A stretch of DNA of 44,741 nt, from the NCBI GenBank assembly GCA_033762915.1, contig JANRLD010000076.1, forward strand, positions 1 through 44,741, in the 5' to 3' direction. This document shows, piece after piece, positions 16,215 to 26,736 of this stretch. Under the pieces are notes generated by a model. The model was not told the origin of the DNA and did no database searches. It was given only the letters and a program-made list of their open reading frames with translations. The stretch comes from Meiothermus sp. GTDB taxonomy: Bacteria > Deinococcota > Deinococci > Deinococcales > Thermaceae. Each line of letters begins with the position of its first letter. Position 1 is the stretch's first letter. The position numbers were made by a program, and so were the translations under genes.

Positions 16215-16331
16215 TGACACCTTTGGCTTCCTTTGACCTGACTGAACCTGATTTCACTTGCCCCTTTCCCCCTCTATTTGTTCGAAAAATCCGCTCACCA
16301 GGCAATTCTAGTACGTAACGACATACCCCCC

Positions 16332-16385
16332 TTTACAAGACAACATTTGAATGCTACTATTCTCGATGTAGCATTCAAATGCTAC
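16332..16385 (+). promoter_or_regulatory. Sigma70-type promoter of the tRNA array with overlapping palindromic operator
   Basis: TTTACA-17-TACTAT with TG extension; CATTTGAATGCTAC/GTAGCATTCAAATG inverted repeat; GTAGCATT-CA-AATGCTAC palindrome. Confidence 0.8.
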
Positions 16386-16433
16386 TAATCGGTGCCCTTC
16401 AGAAGGTACTACGAACTTTGACAAATAAGCCTT

Positions 16434-16597
16434 GGTCGTCGGTGTTCCAGTTTCGACGGATACCGAAAGCGCCGTTGGCGCGTCACGGGTCAAGAGTCAG
16501 GACTCGAGAGCTAGAAGCAGCTCGAGGCCCCAGACTCCCGGCTCGAGACGGCGCGAAGCGCCCAGGAGACGTGGGTAGTAAGCCCCACTCGACGACC
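16434..16597 (+). ncRNA. Unknown structured RNA with tRNA-like 3' geometry
   Basis: Ends pair (GGTCGTCG/CGACGACC); GTGGG/CCCAC arm just before the 3' strand; several internal hairpins. Confidence 0.55.
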
Positions 16598-16605
16598 TTT
16601 ATCAC

Positions 16606-16680
16606 GGGCTGTTGGTGTCAACGGCAGCACGGCGCTCTCCAAAAGCGTTGGTTCTGGTTCAAATCCAGAGCAGCCCGCCA
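16606..16680 (+). tRNA. tRNA-Trp(CCA)
   Basis: Cloverleaf; loop CTCCAAA; CCA end. Confidence 0.92.
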
Positions 16681-16768
16681 AAAGCGCCACCTGCTGGGGT
16701 GGAAATGCTATCAATCGCAAAGTGGTCGGGGCTATGCCCTAGAGCTACGCCCCAACCCCTGTGCGATT
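16681..16768 (+). ncRNA. Repeated structured spacer RNA, copy 1
   Basis: Homologous to 16942-17016 with compensatory stem changes. Confidence 0.65.
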
Positions 16769-16769
16769 C

Positions 16770-16846
16770 CGTGGAGTAGCTCAGCTAGGAAGAGCCCTGG
16801 TTCGGGATACCAGAGGTCAGAGGTTCAAATCCTCTCTCCGCGACCA
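16770..16846 (+). tRNA. tRNA-Pro(GGG), C33
   Basis: CTGGT-TCGGGAT-ACCAG; C1-G72, A73; CGG in an alternative register. Confidence 0.82.
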
Positions 16847-16849
16847 TTT

Positions 16850-16941
16850 GGGTACGAGGTTGACTATCGGTTGGTCACGCCTCTGTGTAAAAGAGGAGCC
16901 CTAAAAAGCCCCTGTAGGTTCAATTCCTACCGTACCCACCA
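16850..16941 (+). tRNA. tRNA-Tyr(GTA)
   Basis: Loop GTGTAAA; long variable region; CCA. Confidence 0.85.
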
Positions 16942-17016
16942 AAAGCGCCAGCCCCTAAAGCTGGAGATGCTATCAACCGCAACGCGGCCCGGCTGGTCCG
17001 GTCACCCCTGCGCGGT
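16942..17016 (+). ncRNA. Repeated structured spacer RNA, copy 2
   Basis: Homologous to 16681-16768. Confidence 0.65.
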
Positions 17017-17019
17017 AAC

Positions 17020-17093
17020 GCAGAACTGGTGTAGTGGCAACACGCGACCATCCCAAGGTCGGGTTGCAGGTTCGATTCCTGCGTTCTGCTCCA
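17020..17093 (+). tRNA. tRNA-Gly(CCC)
   Basis: Loop ATCCCAA; U73; CCA. Confidence 0.9.
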
Positions 17094-17095
17094 TC

Positions 17096-17170
17096 GCGGA
17101 AATAGCTCAGAGGAAGAGCACTTCGTTGCCAACGAAGAGGCCGGGATTTCAAGACTCCCTTTCCGCACCA
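17096..17170 (+). tRNA. tRNA-Gly(GCC)
   Basis: Loop TTGCCAA; irregular T arm; A73. Confidence 0.85.
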
Positions 17171-17171
17171 T

Positions 17172-17246
17172 GCTTCGGTAGCTCAGAGGTAGAGCACCTG
17201 TCTGAAGAACAGGGGGTCGGTAGCTCAAAACTGCCCCGAAGCGCCA
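17172..17246 (+). tRNA. tRNA-Phe(GAA)
   Basis: Loop CTGAAGA; T loop CTCAAAA. Confidence 0.85.
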
Positions 17247-17249
17247 AGA

Positions 17250-17325
17250 GGGCTCCGTAGCTCAACGGCAGAGCGCCCCGTTTGCACCGGGGAGGCTGGG
17301 GGTTCAAATCCCCTCGAGTCCACCA
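17250..17325 (+). tRNA. tRNA-Ala(TGC)
   Basis: Loop TTTGCAC; G3:U70; bulged acceptor stem. Confidence 0.88.
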
Positions 17326-17367
17326 GCACAACCTGTAGGGACGCGGTACCCTGCTTCGCCGCGAAAT

Positions 17368-17442
17368 GGCTCCATAGTGTAGAGGATTGCACGCCACGTT
17401 GTCCGCGTGAGGGCGGGGGTTCGATTCCCCCTGGGGTCGCCA
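17368..17442 (+). tRNA. tRNA-Asp(GTC)
   Basis: Loop TTGTCCG; G73. Confidence 0.9.
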
Positions 17443-17445
17443 TGA

Positions 17446-17520
17446 TGGGAAGTCGTCTAAAGGCAAAGACGTCTGACTCTGACTCAGAAAATGTTGGTTC
17501 AATTCCAGCCTTCCTAGCCA
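17446..17520 (+). tRNA. tRNA-Gln(CTG)
   Basis: Loop CTCTGAC; U1-A72. Confidence 0.92.
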
Positions 17521-17568
17521 AAACGAAAACGAGAATGCCGCCGCACCGGGCGGCATGTTTTCGAGTTC

Positions 17569-17643
17569 GGTGCCATCGTCCAGCGGGCAGGACGTCACGT
17601 TCTCAGCGTGAAGACAGGGGTTCAAATCCCCTTGGCATCTCCA
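17569..17643 (+). tRNA. tRNA-Glu(CTC)
   Basis: Loop TTCTCAG; CCA. Confidence 0.9.
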
Positions 17644-17752
17644 GAAGGGCTCGAGGGACGCCTTGCTCGAAATGGTGAGGGCGAGCCCTTGCCGGAATCG
17701 AGGGTTTGTGCTAAAACTGTAAGGCTGATTTGAGCCTTATAGGCTCCCGAAC

Positions 17753-17827
17753 GGCCCCATCGTCTAGTGGTTAGGACGCCGCCCTCTCACGGCGGTAACA
17801 GGGGTTCAAATCCCCTTGGGGTCACCA
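17753..17827 (+). tRNA. tRNA-Glu(CTC), canonical housekeeping-like
   Basis: GGCCCCATCGTCTAGTGGTTAGGAC...; loop CTCTCAC. Confidence 0.95.
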
Positions 17828-17889
17828 GCGCACAATCCAGACGGTCTACCTGCCTCGCCCAAAGCGGGGCGGTTGACTTGTGTACGGCG

Positions 17890-17944
17890 TGGGGGCAAAC
17901 AGCCGATCAGACGGCTAAAGGTTCAAACCCTGCGTTCCCTGCCA
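17890..17944 (+). ncRNA. D-armless tRNA-like mini RNA
   Basis: GGGGGC/GTTCCC stem; AGCCG/CGGCT hairpin; AGG-TTCAAAC-CCT T arm; GCCA end. Confidence 0.55.
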
Positions 17945-17946
17945 TT

Positions 17947-18033
17947 GGAAGTGACGCCGAATTGGCTAAGGCACCCGTCTTGAAAACGGACAGTCCTCGA
18001 GACCTGTGGGTTCAATTCCCTCCACTTCCGCCA
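17947..18033 (+). tRNA. tRNA-Ser(TGA)
   Basis: Loop CTTGAAA; long variable arm; G73. Confidence 0.9.
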
Positions 18034-18101
18034 ACCGAACCTAAACACCAGCCACCCTTCCTCGCCAGGTCGAGGGAGGCCGGGAGGGTGAGGGGATGTC
18101 T

Positions 18102-18176
18102 GGGGTCGTAGCTCAATTGGCAGAGCGCTGCTGTGGCATGGCAGAGAAAGGGGTTCGACTCCCCTCGATTCCACCA
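18102..18176 (+). tRNA. tRNA-Ala(GGC)
   Basis: Loop GTGGCAT; G3:U70. Confidence 0.9.
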
Positions 18177-18178
18177 GT

Positions 18179-18253
18179 GAGGGTATCGCCTAACGGATAG
18201 GGCACCAGGCTTCGAACCTGGCCGTCGGGGTTCAAGTCCCTGTACCTTCGCCA
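18179..18253 (+). tRNA. tRNA-Arg(TCG)
   Basis: Loop CTTCGAA. Confidence 0.9.
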
Positions 18254-18280
18254 AACCGGTGCGCTGTCTGCACCAACCAC

Positions 18281-18357
18281 GCTCCCCTCGCCTAAAGGAG
18301 AGGGCAACGGTCTTCTAAACCGCCTATGTGCAGGTTCAATTCCTGCGGGGAGCACCA
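18281..18357 (+). tRNA. tRNA-Arg(TCT)
   Basis: Loop CTTCTAA. Confidence 0.9.
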
Positions 18358-18360
18358 CAT

Positions 18361-18437
18361 TGATCGGTAGCTTAACTCGGTAGAGCGCTCGATTGTTAAT
18401 CGAGTCTGTGCAGGTTCGATGCCTGCCCGATCAGCCA
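18361..18437 (+). tRNA. tRNA-Asn(GTT)
   Basis: Loop TTGTTAA; G73. Confidence 0.9.
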
Positions 18438-18440
18438 CGT

Positions 18441-18516
18441 TCCGAAGTAGCTCAAGAAGTAGAGCGCCTAGCTGTTACCTAGGACTGTGCAGGAGCGAAG
18501 CCTGCCTTCGGAGCCA
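18441..18516 (+). tRNA. tRNA-Asn(GTT), atypical T loop
   Basis: Loop CTGTTAC; T loop AGCGAAG; perfect stems. Confidence 0.82.
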
Positions 18517-18517
18517 T

Positions 18518-18593
18518 AGCGGATAACTGCCCCGGTGGGTAGGCAAGGCCCATAACCTTGACGCGGTGGGTTCGATTCCCACATCTGCAACCA
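18518..18593 (+). tRNA. tRNA-Met(CAT), initiator-like
   Basis: Loop CCCATAA; A1/A72 mismatch; atypical D arm. Confidence 0.75.
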
Positions 18594-18596
18594 AAT

Positions 18597-18673
18597 GCCC
18601 TTGTAGCTCAACTGGCCGAAGCGCCTCTCTTACAAAGAGGAGTATGGAGGTTCGAATCCTCTCCGGGGCACCA
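18597..18673 (+). tRNA. tRNA-Val(TAC)
   Basis: Loop CTTACAA. Confidence 0.88.
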
Positions 18674-18727
18674 AAGGGCTTCGCCCCTGTAAAGCGGCGT
18701 TGCCGAGGGCCATCCGGCCCAGCAAAC

Positions 18728-18801
18728 GCGAGATTGATGTAACGACAGCATGGCTGCCTTCCAAGCAGTCTGTGGGGGTTTGAGTCCTCCATCTCGCTCC
18801 A
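18728..18801 (+). tRNA. tRNA-Gly(TCC)
   Basis: Loop CTTCCAA; U73. Confidence 0.88.
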
Positions 18802-18803
18802 TT

Positions 18804-18879
18804 GTCGGTGTAGCTCAGTGAACAGAGCGCTGGCCTGCGAAGCCAGAGGTCGGTGGTTTGAGTCCACCCATTGACGCCA
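18804..18879 (+). tRNA. tRNA-Arg(GCG)
   Basis: CTGGC-CTGCGAA-GCCAG. Confidence 0.88.
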
Positions 18880-18880
18880 T

Positions 18881-18958
18881 CGGACAGTAGCTCAGCCGGT
18901 CCAGAGCATCCCTCTCATAAGGGGAAGTGCGTTGGTTCGAACCCAACCTGTCCGACCA
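18881..18958 (+). tRNA. tRNA(CAT): elongator Met or Ile2
   Basis: Loop CTCATAA; paired C1-G72. Confidence 0.85.
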
Positions 18959-18963
18959 TTTTC

Positions 18964-19037
18964 GACGCGATGACCGAGTGTCTAGGTGACTGGTTGCAAC
19001 CCAGTTGAGGGCGGTTAGATTCCGCCTCGCGTCTCCA
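18964..19037 (+). tRNA. tRNA-Cys(GCA)
   Basis: Loop TTGCAAC; U73. Confidence 0.88.
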
Positions 19038-19041
19038 CAAT

Positions 19042-19119
19042 CTTGCCTTGGCGCAACGGGTTCAGCGCATCCGTCTGATACGCGGAAGGTTCCTGGTTCG
19101 AGTCCAGGAGGCAAGACCA
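19042..19119 (+). tRNA. tRNA-Ile(GAT)
   Basis: Loop CTGATAC. Confidence 0.9.
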
Positions 19120-19124
19120 CTTTC

Positions 19125-19200
19125 GCTGATGTAGCTCGGTCGGCAGAGCACCCGCTTGGTAAGTGGGAGGCCGTGAGTTCGATCCTCACCATCAGCTCCA
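19125..19200 (+). tRNA. tRNA-Thr(GGT)
   Basis: Loop TTGGTAA. Confidence 0.92.
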
Positions 19201-19203
19201 CAT

Positions 19204-19279
19204 GGGTTTGGTCGTCTAATGGCTAGGACACTCGCTTGTGACGCGAGAGAAGGTGGGTCGGAACCACCCCTTACCCCCA
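19204..19279 (+). tRNA. tRNA-His(GTG), degenerate acceptor stem and T loop
   Basis: Loop TTGTGAC; G-1:C73; two T-T mismatches. Confidence 0.78.
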
Positions 19280-19311
19280 GAAAAGATTTCGCCGCTCGAG
19301 GCGAAATCCGT

Positions 19312-19386
19312 GCCGTGGTAGCTCAATGGTTGAGCGCCTGTTTTGTAAACAGGTGGCTGCCGGTTCAAGTCCGGCTCACGGCTCCA
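19312..19386 (+). tRNA. tRNA-Thr(TGT)
   Basis: Loop TTTGTAA. Confidence 0.92.
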
Positions 19387-19480
19387 GCACAAAGGAGGTG
19401 ATCCGACGGCAAGAACTCTTTAGCAGTACCACCCGAAAAAGGGTTCGGAGAGCGCAACGGTTTCGCCGAACCCCACCCCT

Positions 19481-19558
19481 GCTCCTGTGACGGGAACCGG
19501 CATACCTCTGCGCGCGAGAAGTGCAGGCTTGGGGGTTCAACTCCCCCTGGGAGCACCA
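19481..19558 (+). tRNA. tRNA-Leu(GAG), short variable loop
   Basis: Loop GCGAGAA; Leu-type D arm; A73. Confidence 0.78.
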
Positions 19559-19584
19559 AAATACTTGCCCTCGTGGCAGGCCGT

Positions 19585-19659
19585 GAAAGTGTGGCGCAAC
19601 CTGGCAGACGCGCACGGCTCAGAACCGTGTTGTTGAGGGTTCAAATCCCTCCACTTTCA
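19585..19659 (+). tRNA. tRNA-Leu(CAG), short variable loop, CCA not encoded
   Basis: Loop CTCAGAA; followed by CTA. Confidence 0.85.
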
Positions 19660-19664
19660 CTATC

Positions 19665-19741
19665 CAGAGGTTGGACTCGAGGCGAGTCTCCGCGCTTGGA
19701 ACGCGGACATCGGGCAGGTTCGACTCCTGCACCTCTGACCA
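19665..19741 (+). tRNA. tRNA-Pro(TGG)
   Basis: Loop CTTGGAA; C1-G72, A73. Confidence 0.85.
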
Positions 19742-19742
19742 T

Positions 19743-19820
19743 GATTCTGTGACGGGAACTGGCAGACCTGCTCCGCTTAGAACGGAGTGCTTGGGAGTTC
19801 GAATCTCCCCAGAATCACCA
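19743..19820 (+). tRNA. tRNA-Leu(TAG), short variable loop
   Basis: Loop CTTAGAA. Confidence 0.88.
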
Positions 19821-19838
19821 GAAGGTCTTTGCGCCTAT

Positions 19839-19918
19839 CGGGGGTGAAATGAGAACAGTCATTGGTTCTCTAACAGCGAAGACTTGGTTACTTGGTTCAA
19901 CTCCAAAACCCCCGACCA
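19839..19918 (+). ncRNA. tRNA-like RNA with D/anticodon region replaced by the ACAGC module
   Basis: CGGGGGT/ACCCCCG-ACCA; T arm; GAGAAC/GTTCTC-TA-ACAGCGA. Confidence 0.75.
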
Positions 19919-19923
19919 ACTTC

Positions 19924-20001
19924 GCTCTTGTGACGGGAACTGGCATACCTTGCTGTCTCAAAAACAGCAGCTTGGAGGTTCAAATCCTCCCAGGAGCACC
20001 A
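19924..20001 (+). tRNA. tRNA-Leu(CAA), short variable loop
   Basis: Loop CTCAAAA. Confidence 0.88.
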
Positions 20002-20004
20002 CTC

Positions 20005-20081
20005 CTCGAGGTGGCGTAACTGGCAAACGCAGCGGTCTTAAGAACCGTCCCATGCCGGTTCGAATCCCGCCCTCGAGACCA
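20005..20081 (+). tRNA. tRNA-Leu(TAA), short variable loop
   Basis: Loop CTTAAGA. Confidence 0.85.
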
Positions 20082-20090
20082 GCAGTACAC

Positions 20091-20178
20091 GGAAGGGTGG
20101 GCGAGCGGCTTATGCCACCTCACTGCTAAGGAGGAGAGCCTTTGGGCTCCGCAGGTTCAAATCCTGTCCCTTCCGCCA
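20091..20178 (+). tRNA. tRNA-Ser(GCT)
   Basis: Loop CTGCTAA; long variable arm; G73. Confidence 0.9.
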
Positions 20179-20210
20179 CAAGCCGCCTCGAGCTGAGGCG
20201 GCAGTTTTAT

Positions 20211-20328
20211 GGAAGCGTAGCTCAGAAGGTAGAGCAGGTAAAAAACGAGAGTTGGCCAATTCTCTGACAGCAAACCCATTCGCCTTGAACGCGCCGGGTC
20301 GTGGGTTCGAGTCCTACCGCTTCCACCA
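20211..20328 (+). ncRNA. 118-nt tRNA-like RNA with the ACAGCAA module inserted in the anticodon arm
   Basis: Canonical acceptor, D and T arms plus CCA; insert GAGAGTT/AATTCTC-TG-ACAGCAA. Confidence 0.8.
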
Positions 20329-20360
20329 ACACTCACTCGAGCCTAACCGCTCGAGTCCAT

Positions 20361-20436
20361 GCTGACTTCGCCTAACGGCCAAGGCCCCCGCCTCTTAAGC
20401 GGGTTGATGAAGGTTCAAATCCTTCAGTCAGCACCA
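20361..20436 (+). tRNA. tRNA-Lys(CTT)
   Basis: Loop CTCTTAA. Confidence 0.9.
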
Positions 20437-20437
20437 T

Positions 20438-20514
20438 GTCCTTGTAGCTCAACGGCCAGAGCAGCGGTCTTTTAAACCGTATTGGTGTAGGTTCGAGTCC
20501 TACCGAGGACACCA
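20438..20514 (+). tRNA. tRNA-Lys(TTT)
   Basis: Loop CTTTTAA. Confidence 0.92.
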
Positions 20515-20628
20515 CAAATACCCCTCCGGCCTTCGGCCACCTCCCCTGATCCTGATGTTTGCAGTGAATCAAGCCTCGAAGTTCGCCTCGAGGAATGCAC
20601 GCCCAAGGAGAGGCAAGGAGAGGCACAT

Positions 20629-20702
20629 GCTTTCGTAACTCAAGGTAGAGTGGCTGGTTCTTACCCAGTTCGGTGCAGGTTCAAGTCCTGCCGAAAGCAC
20701 CA
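20629..20702 (+). tRNA. tRNA-Lys(CTT), second copy
   Basis: GCTGG-TTCTTAC-CCAGT. Confidence 0.85.
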
Positions 20703-20820
20703 AAACTCACTGACATGGGCCGAGTAGCCTGTGTTTGCGGGCTACTCGAGCCCCTCACCCCAACCGCTCTCCCAAAGGGAGAGAGGACTTAATCGGGCTC
20801 GAGTCAGGAGCGTGATCCCC

Positions 20821-21390
20821 ATGAAGGAGGCAGAGAGACAGCAGCACACTATAGCTGCGAACGCGCAGCACGGCTCGCGCCGCGAGTCCATCAACATTGA
20901 CACCCCCAGAGTCCTAGTGCTCAACGCCGGGTTCCAGCCCCTGGGGATCGCCAGCATTCGCCGCGTGGTGGGCCTGGTGATGAGCGGGCTTGCCGAGGTG
21001 GTGGAGGAGTCGGGCGATTTCCTCCGCACCCCCACCAGCCAGTACCCCGTCCCCAAGATCGTCCGCGTCAAGAAGATGATCCGGCCCCGCTTGCGCGGAC
21101 TGCGTCTGAGCCGCCGCAACGTCTTCCGGCGCGACGCCCACACCTGTGCCTACTGCGGCAAGCGCACCTCAGACCTGACCCTCGACCATGTAATTCCGCG
21201 CTCGAGGGGCGGCAGCAACACCTGGGACAACCTGGTCTCGGCTTGCCAGAGCTGTAACCACCGCAAGGCCGACCGCACCCCCGAGGAGGCGGGCATGAAG
21301 CTCCTCCACAAGCCCGCCAAGCCCAGCCAGAGCGTGTGGCTGGACATCCTCGAGGTGCCCCGCGAGTGGAGGGTGTACTTCGGGGCGTAA
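20821..21390 (+). CDS. HNH endonuclease (McrA/HNH_5-like), start uncertain
   Basis: VLVLNAGFQPL; CAYCG...TLDHVIPRSRGG...NLVSACQSCNHRK. Confidence 0.92.
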   Translation: MKEAERQQHTIAANAQHGSRRESINIDTPRVLVLNAGFQPLGIASIRRVVGLVMSGLAEVVEESGDFLRTPTSQYPVPKIVRVKKMIRPRLRGLRLSRRNVFRRDAHTCAYCGKRTSDLTLDHVIPRSRGGSNTWDNLVSACQSCNHRKADRTPEEAGMKLLHKPAKPSQSVWLDILEVPREWRVYFGA

Positions 21391-21473
21391 AGGGCGGGTG
21401 TAGGGCGTAAAGTGCAAGGAATCTTAAGGGCCTTTGCATACCCTTTTGCTCTTCGCCCTATACCCGCGCTCCT

Positions 21474-21521
21474 AGGCTGCGCTAAACCGGCTTCTTCCCC
21501 AAAGAGAGCCGTCGCGGCCTG
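21474..21521 (+). repeat. Degenerate AGGCYGC/GCGGCCTG hairpin lacking ACAGCAA
   Basis: Same closing stem as the hairpins at 21629 and 21708. Confidence 0.5.
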
Positions 21522-21628
21522 TAAAGATCGTCATCAAAGCCATCGATCTCGAGGCGAGGGCGAACTCGAGGCTTCCCGAAACCCCACATAACCCACCGAA
21601 CCCAAGCCCATCGGCTACCCTGTTACCA

Positions 21629-21681
21629 AGGCCGCCTACAGCAACCAGACTCCTCCACTTGGGGTTACACTGTGCGGCCTG
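21629..21681 (+). ncRNA. ACAGCAA-module hairpin A
   Basis: AGGCCGC-CT-ACAGCAA...GCGGCCTG. Confidence 0.7.
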
Positions 21682-21707
21682 TTCTTTTGGGTGCCGAGCC
21701 GAAACAG

Positions 21708-21762
21708 AGGCCGCGCACAGCAAAAACCCCCATTCCCTTTTCAGGAAAGAGCATGCGGCCTG
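21708..21762 (+). ncRNA. ACAGCAA-module hairpin B (abuts the RBS)
   Basis: AGGCCGC-GC-ACAGCAA...GCGGCCTG, then AAGGAG. Confidence 0.7.
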
Positions 21763-21775
21763 AAGGAGCACAGCT

Positions 21776-23290
21776 ATGAACTTTCTCGAGCTTATGAACC
21801 AGGCCCAGGCTGCTGCCACCTGGAACGGCGCGCTCAGTCACGCCACCAGTGGCAGCGAGCTGGTAGACCTCTACTACCGAGCCGTGCGCGTGCCCGGCTC
21901 GGGCAAGGGTTTCCAGCACGGCGAGTATGTGCCCAAGCAGTTCCTTAGCTACCTCGCCAAGTCCTGGATGGTGAGCCCCGAGGCCGCACTACGCCTGCTG
22001 TTCCACTTGCGCGATGTGCGCGAGGGCAAGGGCGAGCGGGCCATGTTCTATGCGGGCATGGTCTGGCTGGCCAAGACCGACTTGGGGCTGTTCCTCCGCG
22101 CTCTAGCCCTGGTGCCCGAGTACGGCGCATGGAAGGACGTGCTCGAGATCGCCGTCCTCCTCGGCGACGAGCGCGTGACCGCCGAAGCGGTGCGGCTGTT
22201 TGTTCGGGCCCTTCAGGACGGCGACGCCCTGGCCCACCAAGCCGGTCGCCCCGGCGACGCGGCTCTAGCAGCCAAGTGGGCCCCCAGCGAGGGCAAGCGC
22301 CTCGACCGCGCCCTGGGTTTCGTCGAGCGCGTGTGCAAGGCCGCCGGCTGGAGCCGCAAGACCTACCGCGATACCCTGGTGGCGCTGCGGCGGGTGGTCG
22401 AGACCCCCATGAGTGCACGCGAGTGGGAGCGCATCGAGTACGCCCACGTGCCCGCCAAGGCCATGTTGACCTACAACAAGGCTTTCGAGCGCCACGCCCC
22501 CGAGGCTTTCAAGGGCTACCTCGAGGCCGTCCGGAAGGGCGAGGCCAGGATCAACGCCGCTGCCCTGATGGCCCACGAGATCGTGGCGAGGTGGTTCTCC
22601 GGAGCCCTGGGCGAGGCCGAGGAGTTGCAGTGGCGGGCGCTGGTCGAGCAGTATGGCGCCAGCCTCGAGAACACCCTCTGCGTGGTGGACGTTTCTGGCT
22701 CGATGCAGTCGGGCTGGGGCCGGGTCAAGCCCATCCACGTGGCGCTGGGCCTGGGTCTGCTGGCGGCCCACGCGCAGAAGGGCGTGTTCGCGGGCGCCTT
22801 CGTCACCTTCAGCGCCCAGCCCACCCTGCAGCGCGTCAACCTGCGGGCCAGGCTGGCCACCCAGCTCCAGAGCATGAACACCGCCGCCTGGGACATGAAC
22901 ACCGACATCCAGGCCGTGTTCCAGCTGATCCTGGACACCGCCCGGGCCAACCGGCTGCCCCAGCGCCAGTTGCCCCGGCGCGTCCTGATCTTCAGCGACA
23001 TGCAGTTCGACCAGGCCACCGGCGGCAACCAGCTCACCAACTTCCAGAAGGCCCAGCGGGACTTCGAGCGGGCGGGCTATGTGCTGCCCGAGCTGATCTT
23101 CTGGAACGTCAACGGCGCGACCGCCGACTTCCCCGTCCAGATGCACCAGAGCGGCGCGGTGCTGGTGTCGGGCTGGAACCAGACCCTCTTCAAGGCCCTC
23201 TCGCAGAACCGCATCGTCGACCCCCTGCAGATGGTGCTCGAGATCCTCGGCAAGCCCCGCTACGACGCGGTGGGCAAGCTGGTCGCGTGA
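21776..23290 (+). CDS. DUF2828 family protein (TROVE/Ro60-like helical domain + vWA)
   Basis: NGALSHATSG, LRDVREGKGER, YGAWKD, AAKWAPSE, MIDAS DVSGSM, FSDMQFD, PELIFWN; family recognised from motifs, not by database search. Confidence 0.88.
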   Translation: MNFLELMNQAQAAATWNGALSHATSGSELVDLYYRAVRVPGSGKGFQHGEYVPKQFLSYLAKSWMVSPEAALRLLFHLRDVREGKGERAMFYAGMVWLAKTDLGLFLRALALVPEYGAWKDVLEIAVLLGDERVTAEAVRLFVRALQDGDALAHQAGRPGDAALAAKWAPSEGKRLDRALGFVERVCKAAGWSRKTYRDTLVALRRVVETPMSAREWERIEYAHVPAKAMLTYNKAFERHAPEAFKGYLEAVRKGEARINAAALMAHEIVARWFSGALGEAEELQWRALVEQYGASLENTLCVVDVSGSMQSGWGRVKPIHVALGLGLLAAHAQKGVFAGAFVTFSAQPTLQRVNLRARLATQLQSMNTAAWDMNTDIQAVFQLILDTARANRLPQRQLPRRVLIFSDMQFDQATGGNQLTNFQKAQRDFERAGYVLPELIFWNVNGATADFPVQMHQSGAVLVSGWNQTLFKALSQNRIVDPLQMVLEILGKPRYDAVGKLVA

Positions 23291-23325
23291 CCCGAGTGGG
23301 GTCCATCGATTCCCCACAGTAACCC

Positions 23326-23418
23326 CAAGCCCCGTACAGCAAACCTCTAAACTCGGGTTAGGCCGAAAGGCTGCCGGTTCAAATCCAGCGAGATGGCTCG
23401 CGCCATGAAAGGGGCTTG
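23326..23418 (+). ncRNA. ACAGCAA-module RNA with permuted tRNA-like arms (Y-RNA-like)
   Basis: CAAGCCCC-GT-ACAGCAA...GGTTCAAATCC...GGGGCTTG. Confidence 0.75.
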
Positions 23419-23469
23419 TGATGGGGCCTTGCTCGCGTAGGGAGATTCATGAGCTACAAATTGCCCTCG

Positions 23470-24335: not shown

Positions 24336-25334
24336 CTACCCCCGGGCCGAGACGGTGCGGCCCTCGGCGGCGCTCTGGCGGATCATGTCCATCAGCCTGG
24401 CAAAGCGCAGGCCGACCTCGGGGGGGCAGGGGTTGTCTAGCTTTCCCGCCCGTACCCGCAGGAACTGCTCCCAGGGGCCGCTGCTGGCGGCGTATTTCAC
24501 CGGCTTGAACTCGCCCTCGCCGGACTTCTTGATGGACAAGTTCTCGCCCCATATGCCGGTCTTTAGCACCGCCCTGTCGCCAAAAACAGTGACCTCGGAG
24601 TTGCAGTTGATCGAGTCGCCCGCCCCGGTGAGCGAGAAGAAGACGCCGCTCCTCGAGACCCCGCTCACCGAGGAGGCGATCTCCACCGGCGTGCCCCGGT
24701 TGTCGAGCATGGCCGAGACCCGCTCCACGTCCTCGCCCAGCAGTTCCACCACCGTGTTGACCATGTGCGAGCCGGTGTCGAAGAGGAAGCCGCCGCCGGA
24801 GATTTCGGGGTCTTGCCGCCAAGTCCCGATGGTGAATTGCTTCCAGTTCTGGTAGGCCAGCGCCGCGATGGCCGTCACCTTGCCCAGCGCCCCCGTGGCG
24901 ATGAGCCTCTTGGCCTCCCAAACGGCGGGGGAGAGCGAGCCGGGGAAGGCTACGACGACGAGCTGCCCGGTCTGGTCGCGCAGCTTGATGAGCTGTTTGG
25001 CCTCGAGCTGGTTGAGCACCATCGGCTTCTCGAGCAGTACGTCCATCCCGGCCCTGAGGCAGTCGCGGGTGTTCTCGAGGTGGTACTTGTGCGGGGTGAC
25101 GATGAAGGCTGCGTCCGGGCTGCCCTGAGCCTTCACCAGGGCCTTGATGGAGTTGTAAAAGGGGGGACACTCGAGGCCGTGCGCCTCAAGCAGGGCGGCG
25201 GTCTCGAGGCGGCTGGCCTCGCTGGTCTCCACAAACCCCACCAGCTTGGTGGTGCGCGGCATTCTCAGCATGCTGTTCAGGTGAGCCCTGGCCATCCCGC
25301 CGGTGCCTACGATGATGGTTTTGACTTGCGGCAT
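24336..25334 (-). CDS. Gfo/Idh/MocA family oxidoreductase
   Basis: IVGTGGMA, VLLEKPM, GGGFLFDTGSH. Confidence 0.92.
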   Translation of the reverse strand: MPQVKTIIVGTGGMARAHLNSMLRMPRTTKLVGFVETSEASRLETAALLEAHGLECPPFYNSIKALVKAQGSPDAAFIVTPHKYHLENTRDCLRAGMDVLLEKPMVLNQLEAKQLIKLRDQTGQLVVVAFPGSLSPAVWEAKRLIATGALGKVTAIAALAYQNWKQFTIGTWRQDPEISGGGFLFDTGSHMVNTVVELLGEDVERVSAMLDNRGTPVEIASSVSGVSRSGVFFSLTGAGDSINCNSEVTVFGDRAVLKTGIWGENLSIKKSGEGEFKPVKYAASSGPWEQFLRVRAGKLDNPCPPEVGLRFARLMDMIRQSAAEGRTVSARG

Positions 25335-25713
25335 GGGCGTAGTGTATAGGCCGTTGGTGGATGGCGGATAGCAGATAGCAGAAGGCGAGGGCAAAGGAAA
25401 GAGGTGGAAAGGGAAGGCGAGGTTAAGCGCGACCCCTGACGTGTGCAGCGACCTTGGTTCGGGTGGGAGTCTCGAGTGTAGCCCAATCGGTCTGCCGTAA
25501 CCCTCAGGGGGGACGCAAGACGCGGGACTCGGGTACGTCGCGCTTCCGCACCGCAGGCCCTGGCGTCGCCCTTGACTTCGCTCCGCCGCCCTCCGCCCGC
25601 TGCCTACTCCTCCCGTTACCTGTCGTTACTCCCGCCTCCCTGAGTAACACTTCATCCCTGTGCGGTTATTTGGCTCTCATTCTCACTTTGACACCCCGTA
25701 TACTGCCCTCGGC

Positions 25714-26736
25714 ATGTTGCAGCGTTACCTGTTGCGCGAGGCGCTTTCGATCTATCTGCTGGGGGTATTGCTTTTCGTGGGTCTGCTGACCTTCGACCTG
25801 CTCTCCTCGCTGTCGGGGGCCTTTCTGCGGGCCAGGACGCCGGTGGGGGAGATCGTGCAGATGGTACTGTACCGGATGCCCAACACCCTGGGCATCGCGC
25901 TCCCGCTGGGGATTGTCTTCGCGCTGCTGGTGGCGCTGGCGAGGTGGATTCGCCAGTCCGAGCTCAAGGCCATCTACGCCTCGGGGATCGCGCCGCGTGC
26001 GTTTATCCCAGCAGTGCTGTTGGTGGGCTCGGTGATTGCGGGCCTGGTTTTCTTGAACGAAGGCTGGCTCAAGCCCTACGCCCAGGAGCGCTTCGACAAG
26101 CTGTGGTACAAGCTCTACTACGGCAATGAGCCCTCTGGCGTGCTGCAAGACCGTACCTACACCCCCGAGGGGTTGGGGGTCTACTACGCCCAGCGGGTCG
26201 CGCCCGCGGCGGCGGGTCAGGAGGCGGCGGGCTCGAGCCTGGAGAACATCCGCGTCATCGAGCCCGGTGGCTCGATCTGGACGGCCAGCCGGGGGGTCTG
26301 GGTAGACGGGGCCTGGAAGGTGCGGGACGCCTACCGCACCGACCCGGGCGGCAAAATTACGCGGGTGGAGGAGTGGAACCTGCCCTTCCCGCCCGGCGTG
26401 CAGGCCCGGGCGGTCAGCTTCGAGGCCATGCCCCAGGCACAGCTTCAGGCCATCGCCCAGGCCGACCCCGACGCCCAGTTCCCCCTGGCCCGGCGCTACG
26501 CCAACGCGGTGGGGGCCGTCATCATGGCCTGGCTGGCCCTGGTGATTGGGCTCGGTCTGCGCGAGAGCGCCTGGGCCTTCATCGCCGTGGTGGCGATGAT
26601 CTTCGGCTACTGGACGCTGTGGGCGCTCTCGGCCCAGTTCGCCCGCGTAGACCTGCTCAGCAGCTACGGCGCGTGGCTGCCGAACGCGGTCTTCGCGCTG
26701 GCGGCGGCGGGGTTCACCTGGAGGCTGACGCGATGA
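25714..26736 (+). CDS. LptF/LptG family permease
   Basis: MLQRYLLRE, SELKAIYASG, AWLPN. Confidence 0.85.
   Translation: MLQRYLLREALSIYLLGVLLFVGLLTFDLLSSLSGAFLRARTPVGEIVQMVLYRMPNTLGIALPLGIVFALLVALARWIRQSELKAIYASGIAPRAFIPAVLLVGSVIAGLVFLNEGWLKPYAQERFDKLWYKLYYGNEPSGVLQDRTYTPEGLGVYYAQRVAPAAAGQEAAGSSLENIRVIEPGGSIWTASRGVWVDGAWKVRDAYRTDPGGKITRVEEWNLPFPPGVQARAVSFEAMPQAQLQAIAQADPDAQFPLARRYANAVGAVIMAWLALVIGLGLRESAWAFIAVVAMIFGYWTLWALSAQFARVDLLSSYGAWLPNAVFALAAAGFTWRLTR

Follow-up and report, generated by a model that had tools for sequence, protein, structure and literature searches.

Small RNAs encoded beside the gene of a Ro60-fold protein, often in tandem copies, are known from the YrlA/Ro60 system (RF02553; PMC4201824), in which a conserved helix and an adjacent single-stranded motif, GNCGAAN0-1G, are combined with a transfer RNA (tRNA)-like module carrying T and D arms; in Salmonella, RtcB is encoded near them in the rsr-yrlBA-rtcBA operon (PMC7790460). 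The Class I RNAs of Dictyostelium (consensus RF01414) have a 6-bp terminal stem whose 5' strand runs straight into the motif CUUACAGCAA; a variable loop then leads on to the 3' strand, and UG follows. These RNAs are expressed, eukaryotic and, in the published account, unique to Dictyostelia; positions T3, C6, C9, A10 and A11 of their unstructured 11-nucleotide (nt) motif are near-invariant, as are a 5' G and a C near the 3' end, and the direct binder among four associated proteins is an RNA recognition motif (RRM) protein (PMC7919456). tRNA array units have been defined as holding at least 20 tRNA genes at a density of at least 2 per kb (PMC4758250). Here, we describe an 80-nt element at positions 19839-19918 (+ strand) of a Meiothermus sp. 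contig (JANRLD010000076.1, C76; the window is this entire 44.7-kb contig of 44,741 nt, from a genome of 5.38 Mb and 65% G+C). The element lies in a tRNA gene array and probably encodes a small RNA of tRNA shape with no role in decoding; this RNA would be a reduced closed-form member of a family that has not been catalogued, is marked by the motif ACAGCAA and accompanies genes for DUF2828 (Ro60-fold) proteins.

The element consists, in order, of the 5' strand of an acceptor stem, a 5-nt linker, a 6-bp hairpin, the dinucleotide TA, the motif ACAGCGA, an 11-nt linker, a T arm, the acceptor 3' strand and ACCA. The acceptor stem (CGGGGGT, 19839-19845, with ACCCCCG, 19908-19914) is paired at 7/7 positions and is followed by the discriminator base A73 (19915) and an encoded CCA (19916-19918). 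In the hairpin, GAGAAC (19851-19856) is paired with GTTCTC (19865-19870) around a loop of 8 nt, and 3' of it the TA spacer leads to ACAGCGA (19873-19879) and next to AGACTTGG. The T arm (19891-19907; CTTGG/TTCAACT/CCAAA) has four pairs, one C.A mismatch and a canonical T loop. These same three helices form both the minimum free energy structure and the centroid structure in RNAfold.

Features of the tRNA family (RF00005) are present in the 7-bp acceptor, the discriminator A73, the CCA and the T-loop consensus, and the element is spaced within the array like a tRNA, flanked by two tRNA-Leu genes. Neither the canonical D arm nor an anticodon arm with a 7-nt loop is found in the element, where the 5-nt linker and the 8-nt-loop hairpin with ACAGCGA stand instead. 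No tRNA was called here by ARAGORN, which left the gap 19821-19923 empty between tRNA-Leu(tag) and tRNA-Leu(caa). The element gave no Rfam match at gathering score, nor at an E-value (E) of 10 or below when positions 16300-21800 were scanned; at the latter threshold it was matched by none of RF00005, RF02553 and RF01414. Every part that an initial annotation of this DNA had listed was found in its place in the sequence, and its view of the element as a tRNA-derived scaffold with the D/anticodon domain replaced is borne out by sequence and fold.

The replacing segment was compared with the surroundings of distant DUF2828 genes (80 loci, 30-39% identity, mostly from metagenome-assembled genomes of Firmicutes). 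On the gene strand, ACAGCAA occurs at 2.93/kb in the 800 nt upstream of DUF2828, as against 0.17 and 0.07/kb in the far flanks and 0.12/kb in the DUF2828 gene, an upstream enrichment of 17-40-fold; its reverse complement is not enriched. At 174/188 (92.6%) of the upstream ACAGC[AG]A sites, the 5' flank of the motif can form a helix of at least 7 bp with a segment 20-140 nt downstream, and such a helix was found at 171/500 (34.2%) random positions of the same regions and at 131/462 (28.4%) in the far flanks. The resulting open units share the design (A)AAG-nnnn, 0-3 nt, ACAGCAA, a variable stretch of 20-100 nt and nnnn-CTTG; they are typically 50-66 nt long, usually stand in tandem arrays of 3-8 and mostly lie within about 1.5 kb of DUF2828. 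In an alignment of 34 open units, both sides of all 7 helix pairs vary, with changes in 56 cells, the variety of pairs alone being informative here, as pairing is 100% by construction.

A covariance model of these 34 units (R1), which contains no sequence from the Meiothermus genome, was run on DUF2828 loci totalling 1.05 Mb. At E<=0.01 it had 136 matches, 136/136 of them on the DUF2828 strand and spread over about 66/83 loci (counted by eye). What these comparisons show is an RNA family with the signature of a covarying helix, 0-3 nt and ACAGC[AG]A, on the DUF2828 strand and adjoining the gene in distant bacteria and phages. The family is without an entry in Rfam 15, no match at gathering score being obtained in nine DUF2828 loci (137,675 nt), and no description of ACAGCAA RNAs was found in the literature on Y RNAs, on TROVE or phage non-coding RNAs and on tRNA arrays. 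Within some open units, a T arm is followed by a closed acceptor-like hairpin and then by a D arm; two such units with a permuted domain scored 43.8 bits (L035) and 40.5 bits (L056) against YrlA RF02553 (full model, gathering score 69).

Three open units flank the DUF2828 gene of the window, all on the + strand. The first (21626-21683; R1 26.8 bits, E ~1e-3) has the terminal stem AGGCCGC/GCGGCCT, CU, ACAGCAA and a variable loop; when R1 was run on the entire genome, no other position was matched at E<=1. The second (21705-21764; 21.8 bits, E 0.012) ends 12 nt before the DUF2828 start codon. The third (23324-23420; 14.8 bits, E 0.42) lies just 3' of the gene and carries a T-arm-like insert, GGTTCAAATCC, and an 8-bp stem, CAAGCCCC/GGGGCTTG. 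No other credible R1 match was found in the window, and none at all in the genomes of 40 relatives.

In the closed form, the order is acceptor 5' strand, D arm and linker, capped helix, 1-3 nt, ACAGCAA, variable region, T arm and acceptor 3' strand. The helix occupies the place of the tRNA anticodon stem and is capped by a 3-5-nt loop, which is preceded by TTG or ATG at the end of the strand and followed by AAG or GTG. Because the same connections are found in both forms (the D arm runs into the ..CTTG strand, and the AAG.. strand runs into ACAGCAA and the T arm), the open and closed forms can be described as circular permutations of each other. A covariance model of the closed core (R2), built from four unrelated loci, gave 53.6 bits (E 1.7e-10, at 20247-20317) on a sister element at 20211-20328 (+ strand), which is therefore a clear closed-form member. 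Its acceptor GGAAGCG leads into a D arm and a linker; a 7-bp hairpin whose loop is 4 nt long comes next, then TG and ACAGCAA, and a variable region, the T arm, the acceptor and ACCA complete the element. A second array copy with the same motif had been proposed initially, and the proposal is supported; the 13-nt string TCTCT[AG]ACAGC[GA]A is common to both elements.

The element itself follows the helix rule of the family (GAGAAC/GTTCTC, TA, ACAGCGA) and shares the strand (+) of DUF2828, whose gene starts 1.86 kb further downstream, at 21776. The window holds both topologies, with two closed and three open units. As judged from these alignments and models, the element is a tRNA-topology, circularly permuted form of what appears to be a Y-RNA-like RNA, and it is probably not a broken tRNA. 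The term 'chimera', used for it initially, fits a tRNA scaffold with an insert but undersells the insert, which is a conserved module of a widespread RNA family.

The presumed partner of these RNAs is a DUF2828/DUF7788/vWA protein of 504 amino acids (aa), encoded at 21776-23290 (+ strand) and matched in Pfam by DUF7788 (2e-52), DUF2828 (7.1e-44) and VWA_2 (3.8e-5). When its AlphaFold2 model (predicted local distance difference test score, pLDDT, 78.7) was compared with the PDB using Foldseek, the top 13 hits were all Ro60/TROVE structures (E 5e-8 to 6.6e-5, template modelling (TM) score 0.34-0.58, ~510-590 aligned columns each). The predicted fold of DUF2828 is Ro60-like, with a HEAT ring and a vWA domain; by sequence, the similarity to Ro60 is marginal and is restricted to the vWA part (profile against PDB, E 0.016). 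We infer that DUF2828 proteins may bind ACAGC RNAs, and the link between the element and the DUF2828 protein, suggested initially, has strong comparative support from the upstream enrichment, the helix counts and the R1 matches flanking the gene.

In a large protein database, the nearest DUF2828 proteins are 94, 77, 77 and 70% identical to that of the window and all others are at most 37% identical. A single-protein query of genome contigs found no DUF2828 match, and the family was found with an alignment-based query. By tblastn, DUF2828 was detected in 695/50,697 phage records, where it is often annotated as 'Ro-like RNA binding protein'; the phages include Felix O1-like, Listeria P100/A511-like, mycobacterial, Vibrio, Aeromonas and Campylobacter groups. 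Eukaryotic DUF2828 proteins occur in the dictyostelid Cavenderia fasciculata (P0225), oomycetes, chytrids, Naegleria and a red alga. No DUF2828 paper dealing with RNA was found in the full-text literature. A single tRNA or tRNA-like gene called by ARAGORN was observed 50-600 nt upstream of DUF2828, on the same strand, at loci L015, L022, L024, L026, L033, L043, L045, L046, L062 and L070, and some of the tRNA-like genes upstream of DUF2828 are of odd length for their anticodon (e.g. 'tRNA-Leu' of 71-75 nt).

Unannotated ACAGCAA units were also located by the DUF2828 genes of well-studied phages, with three to four units each in Felix O1 (L096, NC_005282.1, 4755-5592, among tRNA genes), Listeria phage AG20 (L097, 2640-2910) and mycobacteriophage Kingsolomon (L098, 4460-4720). 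One unit each of Felix O1 and Kingsolomon contains a permuted tRNA-like domain, and the Listeria unit region is kept in 54 phage records. The tRNA and DUF2828 context of Felix O1 includes HNH genes interspersed with tRNAs and units, and immediately downstream in AG20 are genes for an RtcB-type ligase and a phosphohydrolase. In the paper on Listeria phage CKA15, as far as its accessible part goes, abundant phage RNAs are proposed as Y RNAs for CKA15_055 without sequence analysis, and the CKA15_055 protein is detected in virions. The top non-coding region of that paper (26,236-26,727) does not overlap the three ACAGCAA units, which map to 25,213-25,608; because the two do not coincide, the paper provides no verifiable support for expression of the units.

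The YrlA/Ro60 system is the closest functional analogue. The family shares with it the encoding of small RNAs beside a Ro60-fold gene, often in tandem, and the combination of a conserved helix and adjacent single-stranded motif with a tRNA-like module of T and D arms (PMC4201824); RtcB is encoded near the units of phage AG20, as it is in the Salmonella operon (PMC7790460). Membership fails on protein family, motif, score and the topology of the element. The protein belongs to DUF2828 (PF11443/PF25043) and not to TROVE, and is Ro60-like by predicted fold and marginally similar by sequence. The family motif is ACAGC[AG]A and not GNCGAAN0-1G (PMC4201824), the element containing GCGAAG but no GNCGAA, and all family matches score below the RF02553 gathering score of 69. 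Finally, the element ends in an acceptor stem and CCA with its helix capped, whereas YrlA ends in its protein-binding stem and has its tRNA-like domain permuted.

By design, the Dictyostelium Class I RNA is the closest RNA. Open units resemble it in having a stem, 0-3 nt, ACAGCAA, a variable loop and a stem strand ending in CTTG, at a similar length of 50-66 nt, and the unit L027:7758-7808 matched RF01414 weakly over all 56 positions (19.6 bits, gathering score 41.5, E 0.35). The helix is terminal in Class I RNAs and internal in the tRNA-embedded closed element, although the motif adjoins the helix here as well (GTTCTC-TA-ACAGCGA). No Class I candidate outside Dictyostelia survived the screen reported in the part of the Class I study cited here, and the eukaryotes that encode DUF2828 may not be among the genomes screened (PMC7919456).

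Several observations weigh against a full place for the element in this family. R2 gave it 14.7 bits (19851-19907, full model, E 0.067), and ordinary tRNA T arms score alike. A scan of viral contigs yielded at least 127 loci, and the 141 motif plus T-loop matches among those listed were sorted by rule into 33 closed, 83 open and 25 other; after nine of the 33 closed calls had been removed by eye (two doubtful cases and seven ordinary class-II tRNAs whose variable arm contains ACAGCAA), about 24 credible viral closed forms were left among those listed, all of which have a D arm and 24-37 nt from acceptor to helix, and none of which has a 5-nt linker. Six closed forms with a 7/7 acceptor, from genome loci and the window, likewise keep the D arm and have no 5-nt linker. 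The hairpin loop of the element is 8 nt long, as against 3-5 nt in most other closed forms, its T stem contains the C.A mismatch, and its folding energy is ordinary (-23.1 kcal/mol, z -1.26; 20/200 shuffles equal it in RNAfold). The helix counts of the 34-unit alignment are partly circular, because a stem was the criterion by which the units had been chosen. Since no credible closed form listed has a 5-nt linker and all have a D arm, the element is a reduced and atypical closed form.

The weak R2 score, the lack of any other closed form without a D arm among the ~24 credible viral examples listed or the genome-locus examples, the atypical 8-nt loop and the T-stem mismatch would all be expected if the element were a decaying copy, that is, a non-functional remnant of a former closed-form RNA like 20211-20328 from which the D arm and part of the helix had been lost. 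We consider this unlikely, though a real possibility: the 7-bp acceptor is perfect and carries ACCA, the T loop and motif are intact, and the element is retained in relatives. The relatives are contigs from four runs of different studies in which the island around the array is ~94% identical; three of the runs cover the element, and one contig of 7.5 kb spans tRNAs, the HNH gene downstream of the array and the DUF2828 gene.

Relative X5 is identical across the element, its sole difference lying at 19836. In X1, 19856 C>T is the only change within the element among the differences listed and converts the closing C-G of the hairpin into U.G, so that pairing is kept; in X7, no element change is among the differences listed. 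As the differences listed for X1 are the best 37 of 56 for 19600-20479, a hidden element change is possible in X1 and X7. Over this interval, X1 has 56 substitutions and 36 gap letters, with deletions of 25-30 nt in the nearby spacer 20179-20210. In the sister element, relatives show 20251 G>A, by which a hairpin G.U becomes A-U. About five changes would be expected in the 80 nt of the element and one was seen among the differences listed, which we regard as modest evidence for constraint; it is weak as support for the family assignment, because the relatives diverged by only ~6%.

A normal tRNA at this position in related arrays, or a hairpin and ACAGC that were not conserved there, had been named at the outset as findings that would speak against the element. 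The ~94%-identical contigs from three studies instead keep the element with its hairpin and ACAGC, and have no normal tRNA in its place. With relatives that retain the element and a motif common to the strong sister, simple pseudogene decay is unlikely, as the initial annotation had argued.

C1-G72 and A73 are identity elements of tRNA-Pro. Both, together with CCA, are present in the element, and both array tRNA-Pro genes also have C1-G72/A73. The element might on these grounds be a chargeable tRNA-like molecule of Pro-type identity, used outside decoding or titrating prolyl-tRNA synthetase (ProRS), with the ACAGC module secondary. This seems very improbable, as the element has no anticodon, and bacterial ProRS is strongly dependent on G35/G36; moreover, no common amino-acid identity is apparent, because the acceptor stems of closed-form relatives vary. 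An origin from tRNA-Pro, put forward initially, was not upheld either: C1-G72/A73 is its one ground and is also found in closed-form L043, and the element is without an anticodon.

An ordinary tRNA pseudogene, produced by internal deletion or rearrangement and bearing the hairpin and ACAGCGA by chance, would be compatible with the frequency of the single parts. The window contains 13 matches to ACAGC[AG]A where 9.7 are expected, so that the motif by itself is not enriched, and among 1097 genomic ACAGC[AG]A sites, 85 (~8%) have a hairpin of at least 6 bp directly upstream. The combination of hairpin, motif and T arm is, however, more than chance: a T arm within 70 nt was present at three of these 85 sites, namely the two array elements and one non-tRNA site in a coding region, and the pattern GAGA..TCTCTRACAGC had two matches in the 5.38-Mb genome, both on the + strand within the tRNA array, with 0 matches for a reversed-pattern control. 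The 13-nt string shared with a 53.6-bit family member 400 nt away, the presence, 1.9 kb away, of a DUF2828 gene with three more units at its flanks, and the relatives' arrays without a normal tRNA at this place also argue against such a pseudogene, which we regard as highly unlikely.

Among the other motif matches, C26:51616-51660 (intergenic, without an acceptor stem) and C94:42534 (within a coding region) were rejected as chance. The pattern TCTCTRACAGCRA..GGTTCRANTCC had 0 matches in the viral sequence scan. In metagenomes, TCTCTRACAGCRA..GGTTC matched more than 117 stretches; 80 were examined, and because none of these had a DUF2828 match or a tRNA-like shape, these matches were attributed to chance and the pattern was judged too loose.

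A role of the hairpin and ACAGC at the DNA level, for example as target or recombination site of the neighbouring HNH endonuclease, has in its favour the HNH gene 800 nt downstream and the HNH genes among the tRNAs and units of Felix O1, but it is close to negligible in probability, given 136/136 R1 matches on the DUF2828 strand, helices that covary, a motif that tracks DUF2828 and the expression of the same-design Dictyostelium RNAs (PMC7919456).

Both closed-form RNAs lie in a supernumerary tRNA array (16606-20702, + strand; ARAGORN and Rfam). ARAGORN called 34 tRNAs in the window, all on the + strand between 16606 and 20702, out of a genome total of 86, and Rfam adds a tRNA at 17947-18030 that ARAGORN had missed; this tRNA (Rfam, 45.9 bits) belongs to class II, its variable arm is long, it has G73, and its anticodon loop, CUUGAAA, identifies it as Ser(UGA). 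With at least 34 genes in 4.1 kb on one strand, the array exceeds both limits of the tRNA array unit definition (PMC4758250), and like those units it is supernumerary (34/86 genomic tRNAs) and patchily distributed among the compared genomes. As far as the cited part of that source describes them, tRNA array units concern tRNA genes (PMC4758250); the embedded ACAGCAA RNAs and DUF2828 are features of the present locus.

Two further segments of the array are cloverleaf-like and uncalled by ARAGORN: 18517-18593, with a 6-bp acceptor stem and a weak match to the tRNA-Sec model (34.7 bits), and 19481-19558, which has an ACCA end and shares 79% identity with the tRNA-Leu gene at 19924-20001. The inter-tRNA spacers 16681-16769 and 16942-17019 recur; they start with CAAAAGCGCCA, and the ATGCTATCAA within them is similar to an extended -10 promoter. 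ATGCTA-like words are found upstream of the array (16350-16395), and these words and the spacer repeats may be internal promoters or operator sites. The spacer 17644-17700 holds a 9-10-bp stem, AAGGGCTCG/CGAGCCCTTG, with termini like the AAG...CTTG ends of the open form and no ACAGCAA. X1 and X5 lack the 218 nt from 20479 to 20698, which include the spacer and part of the last tRNA-Lys genes, and have in their place a 29-nt segment that ends a tRNA; strains therefore differ at the 3' end of the array.

The HNH endonuclease gene (20731-21390, + strand; Pfam HNH_5 2.1e-17, HNH 2.9e-15) stands between the array and the DUF2828 module and starts 800 nt downstream of the element. The island is flanked by ordinary chromosomal genes, coding for an RpiR regulator, ATP-binding cassette (ABC) transporter components, an oxidoreductase and LptF/G. 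With the window protein as query, no DUF2828 match was obtained in 363 other genomes of the phylum (E<=1e-10), and in 40 related genomes the island DNA at 19665-20340 had only short tRNA-like matches. For these two reasons the island looks acquired; the whole of it (tRNA array, HNH gene, RNAs and DUF2828) would have been gained horizontally, most likely from a phage.

RNase P and tRNA 3'-end enzymes recognise an acceptor/T-arm minihelix. As this minihelix is their substrate, the best supported step of a possible mechanism is excision by tRNA-processing enzymes: the acceptor/T-arm half and the encoded ACCA would direct the 5' cut by RNase P, 3' trimming, release from the array transcript and stabilisation. 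With less support, the helix and ACAGCGA may be a docking site for the DUF2828 protein, comparable to the conserved Y RNA helix bound by Ro60, because helix and motif are the only part kept in all forms and parallel the Ro60 site (PMC4201824). Ranked last is the role of the particle, which might serve in surveillance or repair of RNA, probably tRNA, or as a tether or decoy of tRNA-directed enzymes, during phage-host conflict; this is suggested by the RtcB-type ligase and phosphohydrolase genes in AG20 and by the tRNA arrays that accompany the gene in Felix O1 and here.

On the reading favoured here, a non-decoding closed-form ACAGCAA RNA, a single RNA module occurs in two topologies related by circular permutation, and for one of these biogenesis would proceed through tRNA processing. 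Annotators would do better to read odd 'tRNA pseudogenes' in arrays beside DUF2828 as members of the ACAGCAA RNA class. A sequence-defined candidate RNA partner also offers a direct experimental handle on DUF2828, a family encoded in 695 phage records that include well-studied phages. More tentatively, DUF2828 may constitute a second widespread branch of Ro60-like proteins, with its own helix plus ACAGCAA 'Y RNAs', from phages such as Felix O1, Listeria P100-like phages and mycobacteriophages and from bacterial islands to eukaryotes; Class I RNAs might then be the partners of amoebal DUF2828, and the element would be the module reduced to an acceptor/T-arm minihelix that bears the docking helix, a natural 'tRNA scaffold' by which tRNA processing delivers it. 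DUF2828 would in this case be a candidate protein partner for the unexplained Class I RNAs of Dictyostelium and, if this is true, the Ro60/Y-RNA principle of a ring protein with a tRNA-mimicking tether would extend to a second protein family.

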